The position numbers and the translations under genes were made by a program. This document shows positions 1 to 7,116 of a stretch of DNA of 7,116 nt, in pieces (position 1 is the stretch's first letter; every line of letters starts with the position of its first letter). Origin of the DNA: a virus (taxonomy: Duplodnaviria; Heunggongvirae; Uroviricota; Caudoviricetes); the IMG/VR virus record IMGVR_UViG_2651869696_000014. One strand, written 5' to 3'. The notes beneath the pieces are model-generated. The model was not told the DNA's origin, did no database searches, and was given only the letters and a program-made list of their open reading frames with translations.

Positions 1-1074
1 TCATTTGTCGATTTCAATTTTGTCCCATTCCCGTCCACGGCTGTCCCTATACCGCGCCGCCATTAAATCTGATTTATGCCCGAGAAGACGTTGAGCAAAC
101 TTATCGCCAATCTGGTTCCGGTATAGCCTCGCTGACAGGCTACGCAGTTCATGGAATGTTGGCGGGTTTCCATCAAATGAGAGTCCAGATGCATTTCTCG
201 CCTTTGTAAAATACTTTGATACTGTTTTCGGGGAAAGCGGATCGTGATGCTTTGATGCGATTATAGTTTCACTGCTGCTGGCCTCCCTGCATTTCTGTAG
301 TGTATCAGCCAATGAGATATTGAGCGCGTCAATCGTTAGCGTTAGCGGAATGGCGAGTTTAGCCCCTGTTTTACTCTGTTCAATGTGAAGATGGTTGTCG
401 TTTATGTCTGACCATTTCATTCTGCACAAATCGCCGACTCTCTGCCCTGTAACGACGGCCAAATCCATCGCCAGCCTTAGCCAGATAGGGAGAGGTTCGG
501 CTGCATGGTAAATCTCGACATACTCATTAGCTGTCAGCCTTGAGCGCCTTACTTCTGACTTTGCTGTACGGGTTGCTGTTACCGGATTCGTTGCAACATG
601 CCCCTCGGCTATTGCTTCACGAAAAACGTCAACAAGGGTTGACCTGATTAATTTTGCGGAAGCTGCTTTACCTTCTGCCACGTAGGTGTTTAGCATTGCT
701 GCCACTTCTTTCGTTGATATGTCAGTGAGCGGTTTGTCCGGCAATTTTCTTCGGATTGCCCTGATTTTGCTGGCGTAGTCGAGTAGAGTTTTCGGCCTGA
801 TCCCTCTTTCGGTGAGGATTCTTTCATATCGGTCAAGCCACACATGAAGAGTGATTGCGTCACCGCCTTTAATTCTGTCTATCAGTGATTTGCGTCCGCT
901 GTCTGAGAGTAACTCAATATTGGCCTGTATTGCTTCAGTGATTGCTATCCTCCTGTCTCGGCCTAATCCAAACTCTTTACCCGTCCTTGGGTCCCTGTAG
1001 CAGTAATATCCATTGTTTCTTATATAAAGGTTAGGGGGTAAATCCCGGCGCTCATGACTTCGCCTTCTTCCCAT
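1..1074 (-). CDS. int: Tyrosine site-specific integrase, lambda Int family (357 aa), mosaic relative to lambda Int
   Basis: Full-length ORF. The N-terminal ~55 aa (MGRRRSHERRDLPPNLYIRNNGYYCYRDPRTGKEFGLGRDRRIAITEAIQANIEL) and C-terminal region match lambda Int as I recall it; the central region diverges. Catalytic residues sit in conserved contexts (TGQRVGDL, EQSKTGAKLAIP, HELRSL, LLGHKSD, ARYRD). Overlaps upstream xis by 23 nt, as in lambda. Confidence 0.95.
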   Translation of the reverse strand: MGRRRSHERRDLPPNLYIRNNGYYCYRDPRTGKEFGLGRDRRIAITEAIQANIELLSDSGRKSLIDRIKGGDAITLHVWLDRYERILTERGIRPKTLLDYASKIRAIRRKLPDKPLTDISTKEVAAMLNTYVAEGKAASAKLIRSTLVDVFREAIAEGHVATNPVTATRTAKSEVRRSRLTANEYVEIYHAAEPLPIWLRLAMDLAVVTGQRVGDLCRMKWSDINDNHLHIEQSKTGAKLAIPLTLTIDALNISLADTLQKCREASSSETIIASKHHDPLSPKTVSKYFTKARNASGLSFDGNPPTFHELRSLSARLYRNQIGDKFAQRLLGHKSDLMAARYRDSRGREWDKIEIDK

Positions 1075-1270
1075 TTCTGATCCTCTTCAAAAGGCTACCT
1101 GTTACTGGTCGATTTAAGTCAACCTTTACCGCTGATTCGTGGAACAGATACTCTCTGCCATCCTTAACCGGAGGAGGGAATATCCTGCATTCGCGCACCC
1201 ATCGACGAACTGTTTCAAGGCTTCTTGGGCGTCGCTGGCGAGCGTTCCACTCCTGAAGTGTCAAGTACAT
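1052..1270 (-). CDS. xis: Excisionase Xis (72 aa), near-identical to lambda Xis
   Basis: Translation MYLTLQEWNARQRRPRSLETVRRWVRECRIFPPPVKDGREYLFHESAVKVDLNRPVTG...KRIRNGKKAKS matches lambda Xis from memory. GGAG lies about 9 nt upstream of the ATG. Overlaps the int start. Confidence 0.92.
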   Translation of the reverse strand: MYLTLQEWNARQRRPRSLETVRRWVRECRIFPPPVKDGREYLFHESAVKVDLNRPVTGSLLKRIRNGKKAKS

Positions 1271-1282
1271 CGCAAAGTCTCC

Positions 1283-1296
1283 GCAATTACACGCAA
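1283..1296 (-). promoter_or_regulatory. Putative CII-activator box TTGC-N6-TTGC of a pI-like int promoter
   Basis: Minus-strand sequence TTGCGTGTAATTGC sits 13-26 nt upstream of the xis ATG. A -10-like TGTACT (4/6 to TATAAT) overlaps the xis start codon at the expected spacing, so a transcript would start inside xis and encode Int without Xis, as established for lambda pI. Confidence 0.45.
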
Positions 1297-1318
1297 GAAA
1301 AAACCGCCATCAGGCGGC
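1297..1318 (-). terminator. Rho-independent terminator-like hairpin (minus strand): stem CCGCC/GGCGG, loop UGAU, followed by UUUUUUCUU
   Basis: Read directly on the reverse complement: GCCGCCTGATGGCGGTTTTTTCTT. The TGA stop codon of the 55-aa ORF lies in the loop. Confidence 0.55.
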
Positions 1319-1477
1319 TTGGTGTTCTTTCAGTTCTTCAATTCGAATATTGGTTACGTCTGCATGTGCTATCTGCGCCCACAGCATCCAGTGGTCATAG
1401 CAGTCGCTGATGTTCTCGGCTTCGATAACTCTGTTGAATGGTTCTCCATTCCATTCACCTGTAACTCGGAAGTGCAT
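1310..1477 (-). CDS. Hypothetical small protein (55 aa), in the position of lambda orf55
   Basis: Not in the supplied ORF track (below its size cutoff). Hand translation of the minus strand from the ATG at 1477 gives MHFRVTGEWNGEPFNRVIEAENISDCYDHWMLWAQIAHADVTNIRIEELKEHQAA, ending at TGA inside the terminator hairpin. Lambda has a 55-aa ORF between xis and ea8.5. No clear Shine-Dalgarno. Confidence 0.45.
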   Translation of the reverse strand: MHFRVTGEWNGEPFNRVIEAENISDCYDHWMLWAQIAHADVTNIRIEELKEHQAA

Positions 1478-1487
1478 TTATCATCGC

Positions 1488-1515
1488 CATAAAACAAAAC
1501 TCGCCGTAGCGAGTT
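1488..1515 (-). terminator. Rho-independent terminator-like hairpin (minus strand): stem CUCGC/GCGAG, loop UACG, followed by UUUUGUUUUAU
   Basis: Read on the reverse complement, about 50 nt downstream of the Ea8.5-like stop. Weak point: the orf55-like ATG is only about 11 nt beyond the U tract. Confidence 0.4.
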
Positions 1516-1565
1516 CAGATAAAAGAAATCCCCGCGAGTGCGAGGATAGTTACTTGTTCATATTA

Positions 1566-1847
1566 TTAATCGTCAATGTATTTTGAGCATTGTGGGCAAT
1601 CATCGATCCCACAATACGATTCATATGCATCCTTTATTGCGTCGCGGGCTTCAGTAAGAGTATTGAATAAGTTGCAGCTATTATCTTTTTGATATAGGTT
1701 AGTTCCTAATTTATAAGCAGAAGAAGCATCATTTCCGCTGTCTAAAATTACATCGTTATGGATTCTGCACCTTGCAAGAACTCCTGATCCCATAAGGGTC
1801 TGCATAGCCCATTGCTCTTGATCTTCACACAAATCATGAATGCTCAT
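1566..1847 (-). CDS. Cys-rich small protein, lambda Ea8.5-like (putative zinc-binding); 93 aa from the preferred start
   Basis: The track ORF is 1566..1865 (99 aa). I prefer the internal ATG at 1847 (MSIHDLCED...) because GAGAGG lies 7 nt upstream, while the 1865 ATG has no SD. Size and position match lambda ea8.5. Cys/His pattern (C-x4-C-x2-C near the C-terminus plus upstream Cys/His) suggests metal binding. Visibly AT-rich compared with neighbours. Confidence 0.55.
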   Translation of the reverse strand: MSIHDLCEDQEQWAMQTLMGSGVLARCRIHNDVILDSGNDASSAYKLGTNLYQKDNSCNLFNTLTEARDAIKDAYESYCGIDDCPQCSKYIDD

Positions 1848-1961
1848 TTCAACACCTCTCTTCACGTTTCACACACGTTAAGATTAACAGTGTTTTTACA
1901 TGCTTTGGAAGATTTATTTTATAAAAACTCTTTTAATACAAATAGATATAATAGTTCACTA

Positions 1962-2759
1962 TTATAGCTCCTTTAATCGAGGCGGTTCTGGTAGAGGCAT
2001 CCAGTGGGTTACACCGCCAATTGGCTCATCGTCGTCGTACTCCAATGCGGTTATATAGAACCCGTCACGACGAGAATAAGAAATCCCGGACATTACAATG
2101 CCATCCGAAACAACAATAATGTCACCCGTTTCTTTCGGCATTCGCTCACTACAGCTTATCCAACCATCCGGAGTCACCGGAAGCGAGAACGGCAGCACAT
2201 CTCTGTGAACAAGTTTTTGCTGTGACAGGTTATCCAGAACTTTCTGTACTGCTGCATCACCGAATACACCAAGCGCATCTGCCATAACTCCTACAACCTG
2301 ATAAGCCTCAGCGCATACCGTGGATAAACCATCCGGAATTACCGGAGAGTTGCCGGGTTCTTTAATGTGCAAGCGAGGCTCACCATCTTTTGGTTCAGGC
2401 CACTGGCGCTCCATGTTGATCTTCAATTTATCTTCCATAGCAGCGGTAATTTCAGCATCGCTGATGCCAGCACGGCGCTGTGCATCCCACAACAGGAAAT
2501 GCATATCAGCCCACTCGCTGAGATCGTCTGGTTCGGCTGCGGCTTCCAGAGCCTCTTTTGAGAGGTGTTTCAGTGGACCAATGGGGCCAACGCAGCCAAA
2601 TGTGGAGTCAGACCATTTGGCATGCTCGTGGCGAATCAGTTCGCGTTCCAGTGATGCCAGTGCAATTCGTGCCAGTTCCATTTGTTCGCCACGAGTAAGC
2701 CCGTTTTCAAGCGGATTTTTAATGAACAATTCAATACGTTCTTTGGTAATAGTGGTCAT
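1962..2759 (-). CDS. Phage protein with N-terminal DUF550-type (putative MazG-like dATP/dGTP pyrophosphohydrolase) domain and C-terminal DUF551 domain (265 aa)
   Basis: Complete ORF with AAGGA 7 nt upstream of the ATG. The C-terminus ...GGVTHWMPLPEPP matches what I recall as the DUF551 signature. The N-terminal Glu-rich helices (GEQMELARIALASLERE ... EWADMHFLLWD) are compatible with an all-alpha NTP-pyrophosphohydrolase fold. The domain call is from memory, not from a search. Confidence 0.7.
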   Translation of the reverse strand: MTTITKERIELFIKNPLENGLTRGEQMELARIALASLERELIRHEHAKWSDSTFGCVGPIGPLKHLSKEALEAAAEPDDLSEWADMHFLLWDAQRRAGISDAEITAAMEDKLKINMERQWPEPKDGEPRLHIKEPGNSPVIPDGLSTVCAEAYQVVGVMADALGVFGDAAVQKVLDNLSQQKLVHRDVLPFSLPVTPDGWISCSERMPKETGDIIVVSDGIVMSGISYSRRDGFYITALEYDDDEPIGGVTHWMPLPEPPRLKEL

Positions 2760-2769
2760 TTGTTAGTCC

Positions 2770-3525
2770 TTAAAGTGCTAGTTGCAATTGCATTTCAAAG
2801 CGGTCGCGTTGTTCACAATACGCAAGAGAACCAGGGCTATTGTGTGCCTCAATCCGTTCTACCATTAATGCTGCGCGTGTCTCTTTACTTGCAGGTGCAT
2901 AAGCCCCAGACCAGGCTTTATCAATACCGATGTTTCGAGCGACGTTCGTACTATCTGCGCTGGCTAAGGGTAATTTTGTGAATATCAGCGGATTTAACAT
3001 GCGCAATCCATGTAGTTTCGTAACCGGCTGACCATGCCCATCAACAATGTGACGAATCAGGTCTTTCATTCTGGCTACCGCAAGAGTTGGGCGCTTTACG
3101 TCATAGTCGCCACAACTACCGATAGCCACTCGCGGAAACTCATTGCACAAATGAATAAATCGCTCGTCACTTTCATTCATGTGCCACACTGGAACGCCAG
3201 CTAGTTTTCCGTGAGGCCACTCATTCAGAAGCGCATCATTTTCCTCCTCTCCGCCATCAATAACATCCGGGATAATGGCAAAATCGAATCCTGGGTGATT
3301 CTTCCAGCGAGCAACAAACTCGTAGTAAACGCTCCAGTCGATTTTGTTTTTGCCAGCTGCTTTCCAGGCGGTGAATGCACCGTTGTCCAGCGCGAACGAC
3401 TGACAGTATTCAGCCGCGAGATTGATCTGGCCTGAATGCGCAAAACTGATAAACGCATGTCGCCCTTTCCATGCTCTCATTGCGCACGTATCAGGAGTAA
3501 TAGGCCCACCGTGGTAGTGAATCAT
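2770..3525 (-). CDS. TGT-superfamily protein, putative DpdA-like DNA 7-deazaguanine transglycosylase (about 251 aa)
   Basis: The track ORF is 2770..3567 (265 aa). I prefer the ATG at 3525 (MIHYHGGP...): it has AAGGAG 6 nt upstream and leaves a 1-nt gap after the upstream stop instead of a 41-nt overlap. Motifs resemble bacterial Tgt as I recall it: ALDNGAF (cf. DSGGFQ), FAIIPDVIDGG (cf. IFDEC), VAIGS (cf. AVGG), ADSTNVARN (cf. MPTRNARN), in the same order. No C-terminal zinc subdomain. Confidence 0.6.
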   Translation of the reverse strand: MIHYHGGPITPDTCAMRAWKGRHAFISFAHSGQINLAAEYCQSFALDNGAFTAWKAAGKNKIDWSVYYEFVARWKNHPGFDFAIIPDVIDGGEEENDALLNEWPHGKLAGVPVWHMNESDERFIHLCNEFPRVAIGSCGDYDVKRPTLAVARMKDLIRHIVDGHGQPVTKLHGLRMLNPLIFTKLPLASADSTNVARNIGIDKAWSGAYAPASKETRAALMVERIEAHNSPGSLAYCEQRDRFEMQLQLAL

Positions 3526-3526
3526 C

Positions 3527-3934
3527 TCACTCTCCTTTGATGCGAATGCCAGTAGCGCGGATTGCATCGATGACTTCAGAAACTTTGTATGCCATTACCG
3601 TTTGGTAATCATCGTGAAAATCTGTTCGATGAAGCATGCTGCTACGTTCCGGGAGCAGTATTTCCCGCGCTTCCAGTTCTGCAATGCGCTTTTTTGCTGC
3701 TTCCAGTTCATCCAGTAATTCCAGCACGGTAGCCGGATTAGCCTTGGCAACAAAATCCCGGACTGGCTTACAATCAATCTCCGCAATGGGTTGATACGAT
3801 GTGTAGCCATGCTGTCTTGTATAACTACCGTGACGAATAACGAAAAAATCACCATTTATTTTTTTAGCCTGCCACTTATCTTCACCGGCTTTCTCTGCCG
3901 CTTCACGCAGTGCCTGAGAGTTAATTTCGCTCAC
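3527..3934 (-). CDS. Ead/Ea22-like protein (135 aa)
   Basis: N-terminal ...QALREAAEKA... and the ANPATVLELLDELEAAKKRIAELEA coiled-coil segment resemble the Ead/Ea22-like family of lambdoid prophages (from memory). It occupies the lambda ea22 position. Its start overlaps the upstream stop (ATGA). Confidence 0.6.
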   Translation of the reverse strand: MSEINSQALREAAEKAGEDKWQAKKINGDFFVIRHGSYTRQHGYTSYQPIAEIDCKPVRDFVAKANPATVLELLDELEAAKKRIAELEAREILLPERSSMLHRTDFHDDYQTVMAYKVSEVIDAIRATGIRIKGE

Positions 3935-4152
3935 TTCGAACCTCTCTGTTTACTGATAAGCTCCAGATCCTCCTGGCAACTTGCACAAGTCCGACAACCC
4001 TGAACGACCAGGCGTCTTCGTTCATCTATGGGATCGCCACACTCACAACAATGAGTGGCGGATATAGTCTGGTAGTTCAGACGACGCATTTTTATTGCTG
4101 TATTGCGCTGTAATTCTTCAATTTCTGATGCTGAATCAATGATGTCCGCCAT
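3931..4152 (-). CDS. DksA/TraR-family C4-type zinc-finger protein (73 aa), lambda orf73-like
   Basis: CxxC...CxxC motif (CCECGDPI ... CRTCASCQ) in a 73-aa protein; same size and position as the lambda TraR homolog orf73. Confidence 0.75.
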   Translation of the reverse strand: MADIIDSASEIEELQRNTAIKMRRLNYQTISATHCCECGDPIDERRRLVVQGCRTCASCQEDLELISKQRGSK

Positions 4153-4206
4153 CTTTCATTAATCCCTGAATTGTTGGTTAATACGCTTGAGGGTAAATGC
4201 GAATAA

Positions 4207-4228
4207 TAAAAAAGGAGCCTGTAGCTCC
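4207..4228 (-). terminator. Rho-independent terminator-like hairpin (minus strand): stem GGAGC/GCUCC, loop UACAG, followed by UUUUUUAUUAUU
   Basis: Read on the reverse complement (GGAGCTACAGGCTCCTTTTTTATTATT), 23 nt downstream of the stop of ORF 4251..4532 and upstream of the TraR-like gene. Confidence 0.5.
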
Positions 4229-4250
4229 CTGATGATTTTGCTTTTCATGT

Positions 4251-4532
4251 TCACCGTTCCTTAAAAACGCCGTTTAACATGCCGATTGCCAGGCTTAAAT
4301 GAGTCGGTGTGAATCCCATCAGCGTTACCGTTTCGCGGTGCTTCTTCAGTACGCTACGGCAAATGTCATCGACGTTTTTATCCGGAAACTGCTGTCTGGC
4401 TTTTTTGATTTCAGAATTAGCCTGACGGGCAATGCTGCGAAGGGCGTTTTCCTGCTGAGGTGTCACTGAACAAGCCCCATGTCGGCAAGCATAAGCACAC
4501 AGAATATGAAGCCCGCTGCCAGAAAAATGCAT
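4251..4532 (-). CDS. Hypothetical protein (93 aa) in the lambda orf60a position
   Basis: ORF in the track, in series with its neighbours (10-nt gap after the upstream stop). No recognisable SD and I do not recognise the family. The true start may differ. Confidence 0.45.
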   Translation of the reverse strand: MHFSGSGLHILCAYACRHGACSVTPQQENALRSIARQANSEIKKARQQFPDKNVDDICRSVLKKHRETVTLMGFTPTHLSLAIGMLNGVFKER

Positions 4533-4542
4533 TCAGTGGTTG

Positions 4543-4734
4543 TCATACCTGGTCTCTTTCATCTGCTTCTGCTTTCGCCACCATCATTTCCAGCTTTTGT
4601 GAAAGGGATGTGGCTAACGTATGAAATTCTTCGTCTGTTTCTACTGGTATTGGCACAAACCTGACTCCAATTTGAGCAAGGCTATGTGCCATCTCAATAC
4701 TCGTTCTTAACTCAACAGGAGATGCTTTGTGCAT
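4543..4734 (-). CDS. Small protein (63 aa), lambda orf63-like by size and position
   Basis: 63-aa ORF exactly where lambda orf63 lies between orf61 and orf60a. Identity is inferred from synteny and size, not sequence recall. Confidence 0.5.
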   Translation of the reverse strand: MHKASPVELRTSIEMAHSLAQIGVRFVPIPVETDEEFHTLATSLSQKLEMMVAKAEADERDQV

Positions 4735-4895
4735 ACCGCCTCCCGTTTATTATTTATCTTCTCAGCCAGCCGCTGTGCTTTCAGTGGATTTCTGATAACA
4801 GAAAGGCCGGGAAATACCCAGCCTCGCTTTGTAACGGAGTAGACGAAAGTGATCGCGCCTACCCGGATATTATCGTGAGGATGCGTCATCGCCAT
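4707..4895 (-). CDS. Small protein (62 aa), lambda orf61-like by size and position
   Basis: ORF immediately upstream of exo, overlapping the exo stop by 10 nt and overlapping the orf63-like start by 28 nt. Synteny with lambda orf61. Confidence 0.45.
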
Positions 4896-5566
4896 TGCTC
4901 CCCAAATACAAAACCAATTTCAGCCAGTGCCTCGTCCATTTTTTCGATGAACTCCGGCACCATCTCGTCAAAACTCGCCATGTACTTTTCATCCCGCTCA
5001 ACCACGACATAATGCAGTCCTTCACGCTTCATACGCGGGTCATAGTTGGCAAAGTACCAGGCATCTTTTCGTGTCACCCACATGCTGTACTGCACCTGGG
5101 CCATGTAAGCCGATTTTATGGCCTCGAAACCACCGAGCCGGAACTTCATGAAATCCCGGGAGGTAAACGGGCATTTCAGCTCAAGACCATTGCCGTCACT
5201 GCATAAACCATCGGGAGAGCAGGCGGTGCGCATACTTTCGTCGCGATAGATGATCGGGGATTCAGTAACATTCACGCCGGAAGTAAACTCAAACAGGGCT
5301 CTGGCGTCGTTCTCGTACTGTTTTCCCCAGGCCAGTGCTTTAGCGTTAACTTCCGGAGCCACACCGGTGCAAACCTCGGCAAGCAGGGTGTGGAAGTAGG
5401 ACATTTTCATGTCAGGCCATTTCTTTCCGGAGCGGGGTTTTGCTATCACGTTGTGAACTTCTGAAGCGGTGATGACGCCGAGCCGTAATTTGTGCCATGC
5501 ATCATCCCCCTGTTCGACAGCTCTCACGTCGATCCCGGTACGCTGCAGGATAATGTCCGGTGTCAT
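4886..5566 (-). CDS. exo: Lambda exonuclease (Red alpha, 5'-3' dsDNA exonuclease), 226 aa
   Basis: Translation [40 protein letters not shown]...GFVFGEQWR is essentially identical to lambda Exo as I recall it. ATGA overlap with the bet stop. Confidence 0.96.
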
Positions 5567-6348
5567 GCTGCCACCTTCTGTTCTGCGGCTTTCTGTTTCA
5601 GGAATCCAAGAGCTTTTACTGCTTCGGCCTGTGTCAGTTCTGACGATGCACGAATGTCGCGGCGAAATATCTGGGAACAGAGCGGCAATAAGTCGTCATC
5701 CCATGTTTTGTCCAGGGCAATCAGCAGAGTGTTAATCTCCTGCATGGTTTCATCGTTAACCGGAGTGATGTCGCGTTCCGGCTGACGTTCTGCAGTGTAT
5801 GCGGTATTTTCGACAATGCGCTCGGCTTCATCCTTGTCATAGATACCCGCAAATCCGAAGGCCAGACGGGCACACTGAATCATGGCTTTATGCCGTAACA
5901 TCCGTTTGGGATGCGACTGCCACGGCCCCGTAATTTCTCTGCCTTCGCGGGTTTTGAATGGTTCGCGACGGCATTCATCCATCCACTCGGTAACGCAGAT
6001 CGGATGATTACGGTCCTTGCGGTAAATCCGGCATGTACAGGATTCATTGTCCTGCTCAAAGTCCATGCCATCAAACTGCTGGTTTTCATTGATGATGCGG
6101 GACCAGCCATCAACGCCCACCACCGGAACGATGCCATTCTGCTTATCAGGAAAGGCGTAAATTTCTTTCGTCCACGGATTAAGGCCGTACTGGTTGGCAA
6201 CGATCAGTAATGCGATGAACTGCGCATCGCTGGCATCACCTTTAAATGCCGTCTGGCGAAGAGTGGTGATCAGTTCCTGTGGGTCGACAGAATCCATGCC
6301 GACACGTTCAGCCAGCTTCCCAGCCAGCGTTGCGAGTGCTGTACTCAT
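5563..6348 (-). CDS. bet: Red beta single-strand annealing protein (Bet), 261 aa
   Basis: Translation [66 protein letters not shown]... matches lambda Bet. Confidence 0.96.
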
Positions 6349-6353
6349 CCGTT

Positions 6354-6650
6354 TTATACCTCTGAATCAATATCAACCTGGTGGTGAGCAATGGTTTCAA
6401 CCATGTACCGGATGTGTTCTGCCATGCGCTCCTGAAACTCAACATCGTCATCAAACGCACGGGTAATGGCTTTTTTGCTGGCCCCGTGGCGTTGCAAATG
6501 ACCGATGCATAGCGATTCAAACAGGTGCTGGGGCAGGCCTTTTTCCATGTCGTCTGCCAGTTCTGCCTCTTTCTCTTCACGGGCGATCTGCTGGTAGTGA
6601 CGCGCCCAGCTCTGAGCCTCAAGACGATCCTGAATGTAATAAGCGTTCAT
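6354..6650 (-). CDS. gam: Gam (GamS form, 98 aa), RecBCD inhibitor
   Basis: Translation [48 protein letters not shown]...[10 protein letters not shown] matches the short form of lambda Gam. AGGAG lies 7 nt upstream of the ATG. Confidence 0.92.
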
Positions 6651-6704
6651 GGCTGAACTCCTGAAAATGGCTGTGAAAATATCGCCCGCGAAATGCCAGG
6701 CTGA

Positions 6705-6785
6705 TTAGGAAAACAGGAAAGGGGGGTAGTGAATGCTTTTGCTTGATCTCAGTTTCTGTATTAATATCCATTTTTTATAAGCGTC
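6705..6785 (-). pseudogene. kil: Probable 3' remnant of kil, truncated at its 5' side by IS1
   Basis: Minus-strand frame open from the IS1 boundary reads ...[26 protein letters not shown] then stop at 6705-6707. In lambda, kil lies immediately upstream of and overlapping the long gam start. No start codon remains; the frame runs into the IS1 inverted repeat. Identification rests mainly on position. Confidence 0.4.
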
Positions 6786-6808
6786 GGTGATGCTGCCAAC
6801 TTACTGAT
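6786..6808 (+). repeat. IS1 left terminal inverted repeat (IRL)
   Basis: GGTGATGCTGCCAACTTACTGAT read directly in the sequence. Confidence 0.85.
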
Positions 6809-6840
6809 TTAGTGTATGATGGTGTTTTTGAGGTGCTCCA

Positions 6841-7116
6841 GTGGCTTCTGTTTCTATCAGCTGTCCCTCCTGTTCAGCTACTGACGGGGTGGTGCGTAAC
6901 GGCAAAAGCACCGCCGGACATCAGCGCTATCTCTGCTCTCACTGCCGTAAAACATGGCAACTGCAGTTCACTTACACCGCTTCTCAACCCGGTACGCACC
7001 AGAAAATCATTGATATGGCCATGAATGGCGTTGGATGCCGGGCAACTGCCCGCATTATGGGCGTTGGCCTCAACACGATTTTACGTCACTTAAAAAACTC
7101 AGGCCGCAGTCGGTAA
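6841..7116 (+). CDS. insA: IS1 InsA (91 aa), transposition repressor and N-terminal part of the InsAB' transposase
   Basis: Translation [91 protein letters not shown] matches InsA. The stop codon is the last three bases of the window. Confidence 0.96.
7099..7107 (+). promoter_or_regulatory. IS1 programmed -1 ribosomal frameshift motif (TTAAAAAAC, the A6C slippery site)
   Basis: The A6C run sits near the 3' end of insA at the known position for the InsA-to-InsAB' frameshift. The downstream insB' frame is outside the window. Confidence 0.7.

Follow-up and report, generated by a model that had tools for sequence, protein, structure and literature searches.

An HK022-type integrase gene with an arm-binding segment common to lambda in a lambdoid prophage

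The integrase gene (int) that opens the stretch of viral DNA analysed here (7,116 nucleotides, IMG/VR record IMGVR_UViG_2651869696_000014; hereafter the window) very probably belongs to a lambdoid prophage that integrates as HK022 does, at the attB between torS and torT. The encoded protein (Int) is 96% identical to HK022 Int in amino acids and 95.3% in DNA, against 75% and 72% for lambda. The lambda/HK022 pair is a classic system in which arm binding is separated from core specificity. The initial annotation had cited this pair, which does apply, but had not recognised the window Int as the HK022 partner. Its prediction that the divergence of the central and catalytic domains means a non-lambda core specificity agrees with the identity values above and with the HK022 state of the specificity positions. 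HK022-type Int has already been characterised, and both RefSeq and published Stx1a phages contain the allele, so it is nothing new. Its value lies in annotation: int would mark where a torS-torT lambdoid prophage has its left end, as in O26, O103, and O121 Shiga-toxigenic E. coli (STEC). HK022 prophages at torS-torT have been reported to rewire the regulation of torS and torCAD (PMC6814406).

Table 1. Coordinates of the features discussed, as positions in the 7,116-nucleotide window
Feature	Positions	Strand	Description
Last bases of the attP P' arm per HK022 annotation	1..7	.	HK022 record: attP 20504-20730, int 20724-21797
int	1..1074	minus	intact 357-aa ORF, ATG to TGA; HK022-type heterobivalent tyrosine integrase
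int codons 56-357 (arm-domain end and linker, core-binding and catalytic domains)	1..909	minus	HK022-type
Second, minor mosaic patch (int nt 120-639)	436..955	minus	holds nearly all differences from HK022 int
Arm-binding segment, codons 1-55, common to lambda	910..1074	minus	matches to lambda: protein 55/55, DNA 159/165
xis	1052..1270	minus	72-aa excisionase; Pfam Exc family
xis start and upstream, 50 nt identical to lambda	1247..1296	minus	has TTGC-N6-TTGC at 1283-1296

The integrase and its HK022-type residues

The int reading frame is uninterrupted over its 357 codons, and window position 1 is the end of its stop codon. The protein has three Pfam matches above threshold, namely PF09003 Arm-DNA-bind_1 at aa 1-68 (E = 1.3e-28), the SAM-like core-binding domain Phage_int_SAM_1 at aa 81-158, and the PF00589 Phage_integrase catalytic domain at aa 179-346 (E = 1.7e-40). 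The catalytic hexad R212, K235, H308, R311, H333, and Y342 is intact in the alignment. Int thus belongs to the tyrosine recombinase/phage integrase family by its catalytic domain with R-K-H-R-H-Y, and to the lambda-type heterobivalent class by its separate N-terminal arm-type DNA-binding domain. The best match among solved structures is full-length lambda Int (E = 6e-177; other full-length entries E ~1e-176), and the isolated lambda N-domain structure 1kjk matches aa 1-62. According to the annotation in relatives, the window Int is the same protein as RefSeq WP_000533662.1. The peptide quoted in the initial annotation (LLSDSGRKSLIDRIKGGDAITLHVWLDRYERILTERGIRPKTLLDYASK) is found at Int aa 55-103.

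Changes at positions 99, 282, 283, 287, and 319 reportedly suffice to switch lambda Int to HK022 specificity, a result credited to Dorgai et al. in 1995. In the window Int these five positions are D, P, K, K, and R, which is the HK022 state, and R329 is in the HK022 state as well. Lambda Int has N99, S282, G283, R287, E319, and H329, so that all six specificity positions differ and the window Int falls outside the lambda-specificity class (lambda, 434, and HK97 type), whose int genes are 72% identical to it in DNA. Identity to HK022 Int reaches 95% over aa 64-176 and 98% over aa 177-357, compared with 71% and 72% for lambda. This near-identity across the core-binding and catalytic domains, together with the state of the specificity residues, makes the protein a member of the HK022 type. 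Pairwise alignment with lambda, HK022, and other lambdoid integrases, which had been proposed as a check, likewise places the central region outside lambda variation and finds it HK022-like. The difference in specificity between lambda and HK022 has been ascribed largely to five residues (PMC6007267), and N99D and H329R shift lambda Int toward the HK022 attB (PMC10863862).

HK022 Int (AAF30377.1; AF069308 / NC_002166) is also alike in its length of 357 aa and its catalytic residues. In contrast, the HK022 genome backbone differs, as the window has a lambda-like exo-bet-gam early region typical of Stx1a/STEC prophages. The same int, 100% identical in DNA, is carried by the Stx1a-converting phage Stx1a_11KH263 (LC744179.1) and, among the matches listed, by at least 20 complete STEC chromosomes, including ones labelled O26, O103, and O121. 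The int of phage H19J (AJ236875.1) is 99.8% identical in DNA. The window prophage differs from the Stx1a-converting phages and H19J by an IS1 element in kil, which these records do not have.

The excisionase gene xis overlaps the start of int by 23 nt. Its product matches HK022 Xis at every residue and differs from lambda Xis at a single one (S59 vs G59). The 50-nt region at the start of xis presumably corresponds to the place where lambda has its cII-activated pI promoter.

Mosaic structure against lambda and HK022

Lambda Int (PDB 1z1b, 1z1g, 5j0n; J02459) resembles the window Int in three-domain architecture and mechanism, and its catalytic residues are identical. The arm-type sites and Xis are essentially alike, and the pI region is identical. 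Within int, identity to lambda drops at a single point. In an alignment of xis plus int with lambda on the codon strand, mismatches occupy 13 of 361 columns in xis and int nt 1-165, and 309 of 909 from int nt 166 to the stop. The best breakpoint falls precisely between codons 55 and 56, at window 909/910 (Fisher p = 3e-36), and the step is far beyond chance. There is one junction with lambda, not two, and from there the DNA stays at about 66% identity through the stop codon. Over codons 56-357, 600 of 909 nt are the same as in lambda (~66%) and 864 of 909 as in HK022 (95%); these codons carry D99, P282, K283, K287, R319, and R329 as well as the six catalytic residues. In HK022 int, too, the junction with lambda follows codon 55. 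The junction is an old recombination boundary common to HK022 and all its relatives, and is not peculiar to the window copy.

A mosaic with lambda-identical ends and a divergent centre had been described for this gene at first. The N-terminal part of that description stands, with all of residues 1-55 identical. The divergence itself is also real, but it is not confined to the centre and runs from codon 56 to the stop. Identity to lambda is 72% in the catalytic domain (aa 177-357), which is no nearer to lambda than the core-binding domain (aa 64-176) is, and the divergence continues as far as the stop. The lambda-identical description thus fails for the C-terminal end, where only generally conserved motifs and catalytic residues match. 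The last 20 residues are 75% identical to lambda, and the window Int is one residue longer.

That the window encodes an Int of lambda specificity, with the divergence past the N-terminus as ordinary allelic variation and the prophage at the lambda attB of gal-bio, is vanishingly improbable. Lambda-like features are the N-terminal 55 residues, Xis apart from a single residue, the pI region, and the best solved-structure match, but the DNA of codons 56-357 stands at 66% to lambda vs 95% to HK022, and every specificity position is in the HK022 state. Those identical int genes that were inspected are found at torS and next to an HK022 core, and not by gal or bio with the lambda core GCTTTTTTATACTAA. 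The best matches in E. coli also fall into a group of at least 90% identity (420 records) and a group of 60-80% (1291 records), set apart mainly by a band at 80-90% whose sampled members are truncated or degenerate copies, one of which was inspected. A third specificity class at 80-90% identity was considered for this band and rejected, since the sampled members are truncated and the inspected one is a degenerate pseudogene.

Against HK022, the HK022-type int of the window shows a second, minor mosaic signal. Differences from HK022 occupy 48 of 520 positions in int nt 120-639 and 5 of 750 elsewhere in xis and int (p = 2e-14), which corresponds to a divergence of 9% inside the patch and 0.7% outside it. 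The sequence of this patch suggests an exchange with another HK022-like allele. The proteins differ by 13 amino acid substitutions, at positions 58-60, 62, 71, 78, 85, 88, 117, 137, 187, 261, and 337. None of them is at a specificity or catalytic position, and residue comparison gave no sign of a functional change from these 13 differences. It is a long shot that the patch, with its amino acid changes clustered at 58-88, across the linker and into the first part of the core-binding domain, comes from a third, uncharacterised HK022-like lineage and could tune core affinity or arm-core linker geometry. The targets of such tuning may be the common GCACTTA variant of attB, or new overlaps as in the sister Int at yfaT described below. 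In that case, the HK022-type alleles found in nature would differ by degrees in site preference while having a single arm-binding module in common.

Attachment sites and integration locus

By analogy with lambda and HK022, the N-terminal domain would bind the arm-type sites P1, P2, and P'1-P'3 common to both phages, and the HK022-type core-binding and catalytic domains would recognise HK022 core half-sites (xxxCTTx), with strand exchange across a 7-bp overlap. Int, Xis, and host bending proteins would together carry out prophage integration and excision at the HK022 attB (GCACTT[T/A]-AGGTGAA-AAAGGTT), which lies in the 82 bp that separate torS from torT. Xis would direct excision. On the same analogy, the window Int would be active on HK022 att sites.

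The annotated attP of HK022 overlaps int by only 7 nt. The rest of attL is outside the window, and its core would lie about 70-90 bp beyond the left edge; the initial annotation had placed the att site there, and the window does start at the int stop codon. Since the att site is off the left edge, the chromosomal location is read by proxy from relatives, and the window copy's own attL and integration site are probably those of torS-torT. Four relatives with a 100% identical int were inspected, namely UTAK-6, H19, O121 RM8352, and phage Stx1a_11KH263. UTAK-6 is the best long match and covers window 1-6786 at 99.9%. In all three chromosomes (UTAK-6, H19, and O121 RM8352) int lies 94 bp from the start of torS, and the ends of the Stx1a_11KH263 record align to the same junction and to K-12 torS-torT sequence. 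In the alignment of relatives the P' arm is continuous into window 1-20. The torS assignment is made because 100% identical alleles lie at torS and because window nt 1-10 match the int 3' end and P' arm of the torS class, not of the yfaT class.

The attL of UTAK-6 and Stx1a_11KH263, at the junction adjoining int, reads GCACTTA-AGGTGAA-TAAGTTG, and the junction at the opposite end of Stx1a_11KH263, attR, reads ATCCTTT-AGGTGAA-AAAGGTT. The unoccupied torS-torT site of K-12 is GCACTTT-AGGTGAA-AAAGGTT (extracted K-12 stretch 6187-6207). Taken together, the three give an attP core of ATCCTTT-AGGTGAA-TAAGTTG, which is identical to that of HK022, a phage with the same torS-torT attB. The identical-int relatives thus have the overlap AGGTGAA at the torS-torT attB, in contrast to lambda with its overlap TTTATAC and its attB at gal-bio. 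The arm-type sequences P1, P2, and P'1-P'3 of the relatives align with those of lambda. Both predictions made from the sequence at the outset, of lambda-like arm sites and of a different core or attB, are therefore matched in these relatives, in which attL, attR, and the host locus were identified as had been proposed. The two observations named beforehand as speaking against them are not seen, as the central region is not lambda variation and the relatives do not lie at the lambda attB. The attL junction is present in 195 of 5426 genomes. Published work places the HK022 attB between torS and torT and reports that ~5% of E. coli genomes have an HK022-like prophage at this site (PMC6814406).

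The innermost base of the attB B half-site is polymorphic in E. coli, with GCACTTT in K-12 and GCACTTA in many strains. GCACTTA was considered as a phage-specific mark of the core and rejected, as empty attB sites carrying A are exact matches in at least the 12 genomes listed; 1332 records fall in the band of A-variant empty sites at 99% or more, although partial matches may be among them. The T/A difference in attL is a host polymorphism. At torS, the left flank of the window would be expected to contain the junction GCACTT(T/A)AGGTGAATAAGTTG. Its expected reading is ...GGTCGGTGCACTT(T/A)AGGTGAATAAGTTGTATATTTAAAA..., followed leftward by the start of torS, and the matching attR would be ATCCTTTAGGTGAAAAAGGTT, adjoining torT.

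A sister integrase is found in E. coli O26:H11 11368 (WP_000533670.1), where the prophage lies inside yfaT. This Int is 95% identical in amino acids and has the same specificity residues and N-terminal domain. The prophage is bounded by an attL of CAACTTA-TGACATG-GAAGTTG and an attR of CTCCTTC-TGACATG-GAAGGAC (extracted stretches 2400-2425 and 1134-1175), while the empty K-12 yfaT site is CAACTTATGACATGGAAGGAC (K-12 yfaT 5412-5439). The core half-sites there belong to the same type and retain the CTT triplet, which is reported as required for HK022 Int (bioRxiv 10.1101/2023.11.06.565760). In contrast, the overlap is TGACATG instead of AGGTGAA, and there are also differences in the last two codons and at the P' end. 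The yfaT-class int differs from that of the window in its last 10 nt and at 18 amino acid positions. From its sequence, the yfaT prophage looks like a natural retargeting by a change of the att overlap and not of the integrase, which gives it a modest interest. Since the same specificity residues occur at yfaT, the Int sequence predicts the half-site type and not the attB.

The yfaT prophage bears on a further reading, by which the window Int is of HK022 type but its own attP has a different 7-bp overlap and leads to a site other than torS-torT. The O26 11368 prophage does this with a 95% identical Int, HK022 Int tolerates other overlap sequences (PMC7736782), and the window's own att lies beyond the left edge. 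This reading is nevertheless highly improbable, as every inspected copy of the 100% identical int is at torS, as is the longest close match (99.9% over 6.8 kb), and window 1-10 match the torS class, from which the yfaT class is set apart by the last 10 nt of int and 18 amino acids.

The rest of the window and its relatives

The left end of an IS1 element (GGTGATGCTGCCAACTTACTG...) occupies window 6786-7116 inside the phage kil gene, and its InsA ORF (6841-7116) reaches the window edge. In UTAK-6, kil is intact (extracted stretch 10707-10871, ~window 6705-6869). Complete E. coli genomes and phage records were searched with the whole window. All matches stop at 6786, where IS1 begins, and the IS1 junction of the window was not found in the genomes and records searched.

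With IS1 interrupting kil at window 6786/6787, the prophage may be decaying, and int could be an inactive relic whose frame is intact in an element that no longer integrates or excises. Close relatives have frameshifts nearby, for example in exo and a DpdA-like gene of UTAK-6, and an HK022-type int is present in degenerate form in E. coli O157:H7 strain 2159. On the other hand, int and xis are full-length ORFs with the catalytic residues of Int intact, and the same allele is 100% identical in nucleotides in the O26, O103, and O121 lineages and in a deposited complete Stx1a-converting phage genome. A relic is very unlikely. It would also concern the activity of Int and not its identity, and is compatible with the HK022-type assignment.

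The int pseudogene of strain 2159 (extracted stretch 2496-3490) is ~86% identical in nucleotides, lacks the N-terminus, and has frameshifts. It adjoins the effector genes nleA, nleH1-2, and nleF, and other O157 genomes gave the same truncated int match.

Two ORFs of the window are intact but split or frameshifted in their UTAK-6 counterparts, namely a dATP/dGTP pyrophosphohydrolase-DUF551 fusion (265 aa, window 1962-2759) and exo (226 aa, 4886-5566), with small indels separating the two copies. A second ORF of 265 aa, on the minus strand at window 2770-3567, had no match in Pfam or NCBIfam. It matches PHROG 887 'queuine tRNA-ribosyltransferase' (E = 6e-103), which suggests a DpdA-like enzyme with a possible role in modifying DNA with 7-deazaguanine. 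This ORF is intact in the window and frameshifted in UTAK-6, the closest relative. Further on, UTAK-6 encodes a nucleotide-modification protein of the Nmad5 family.
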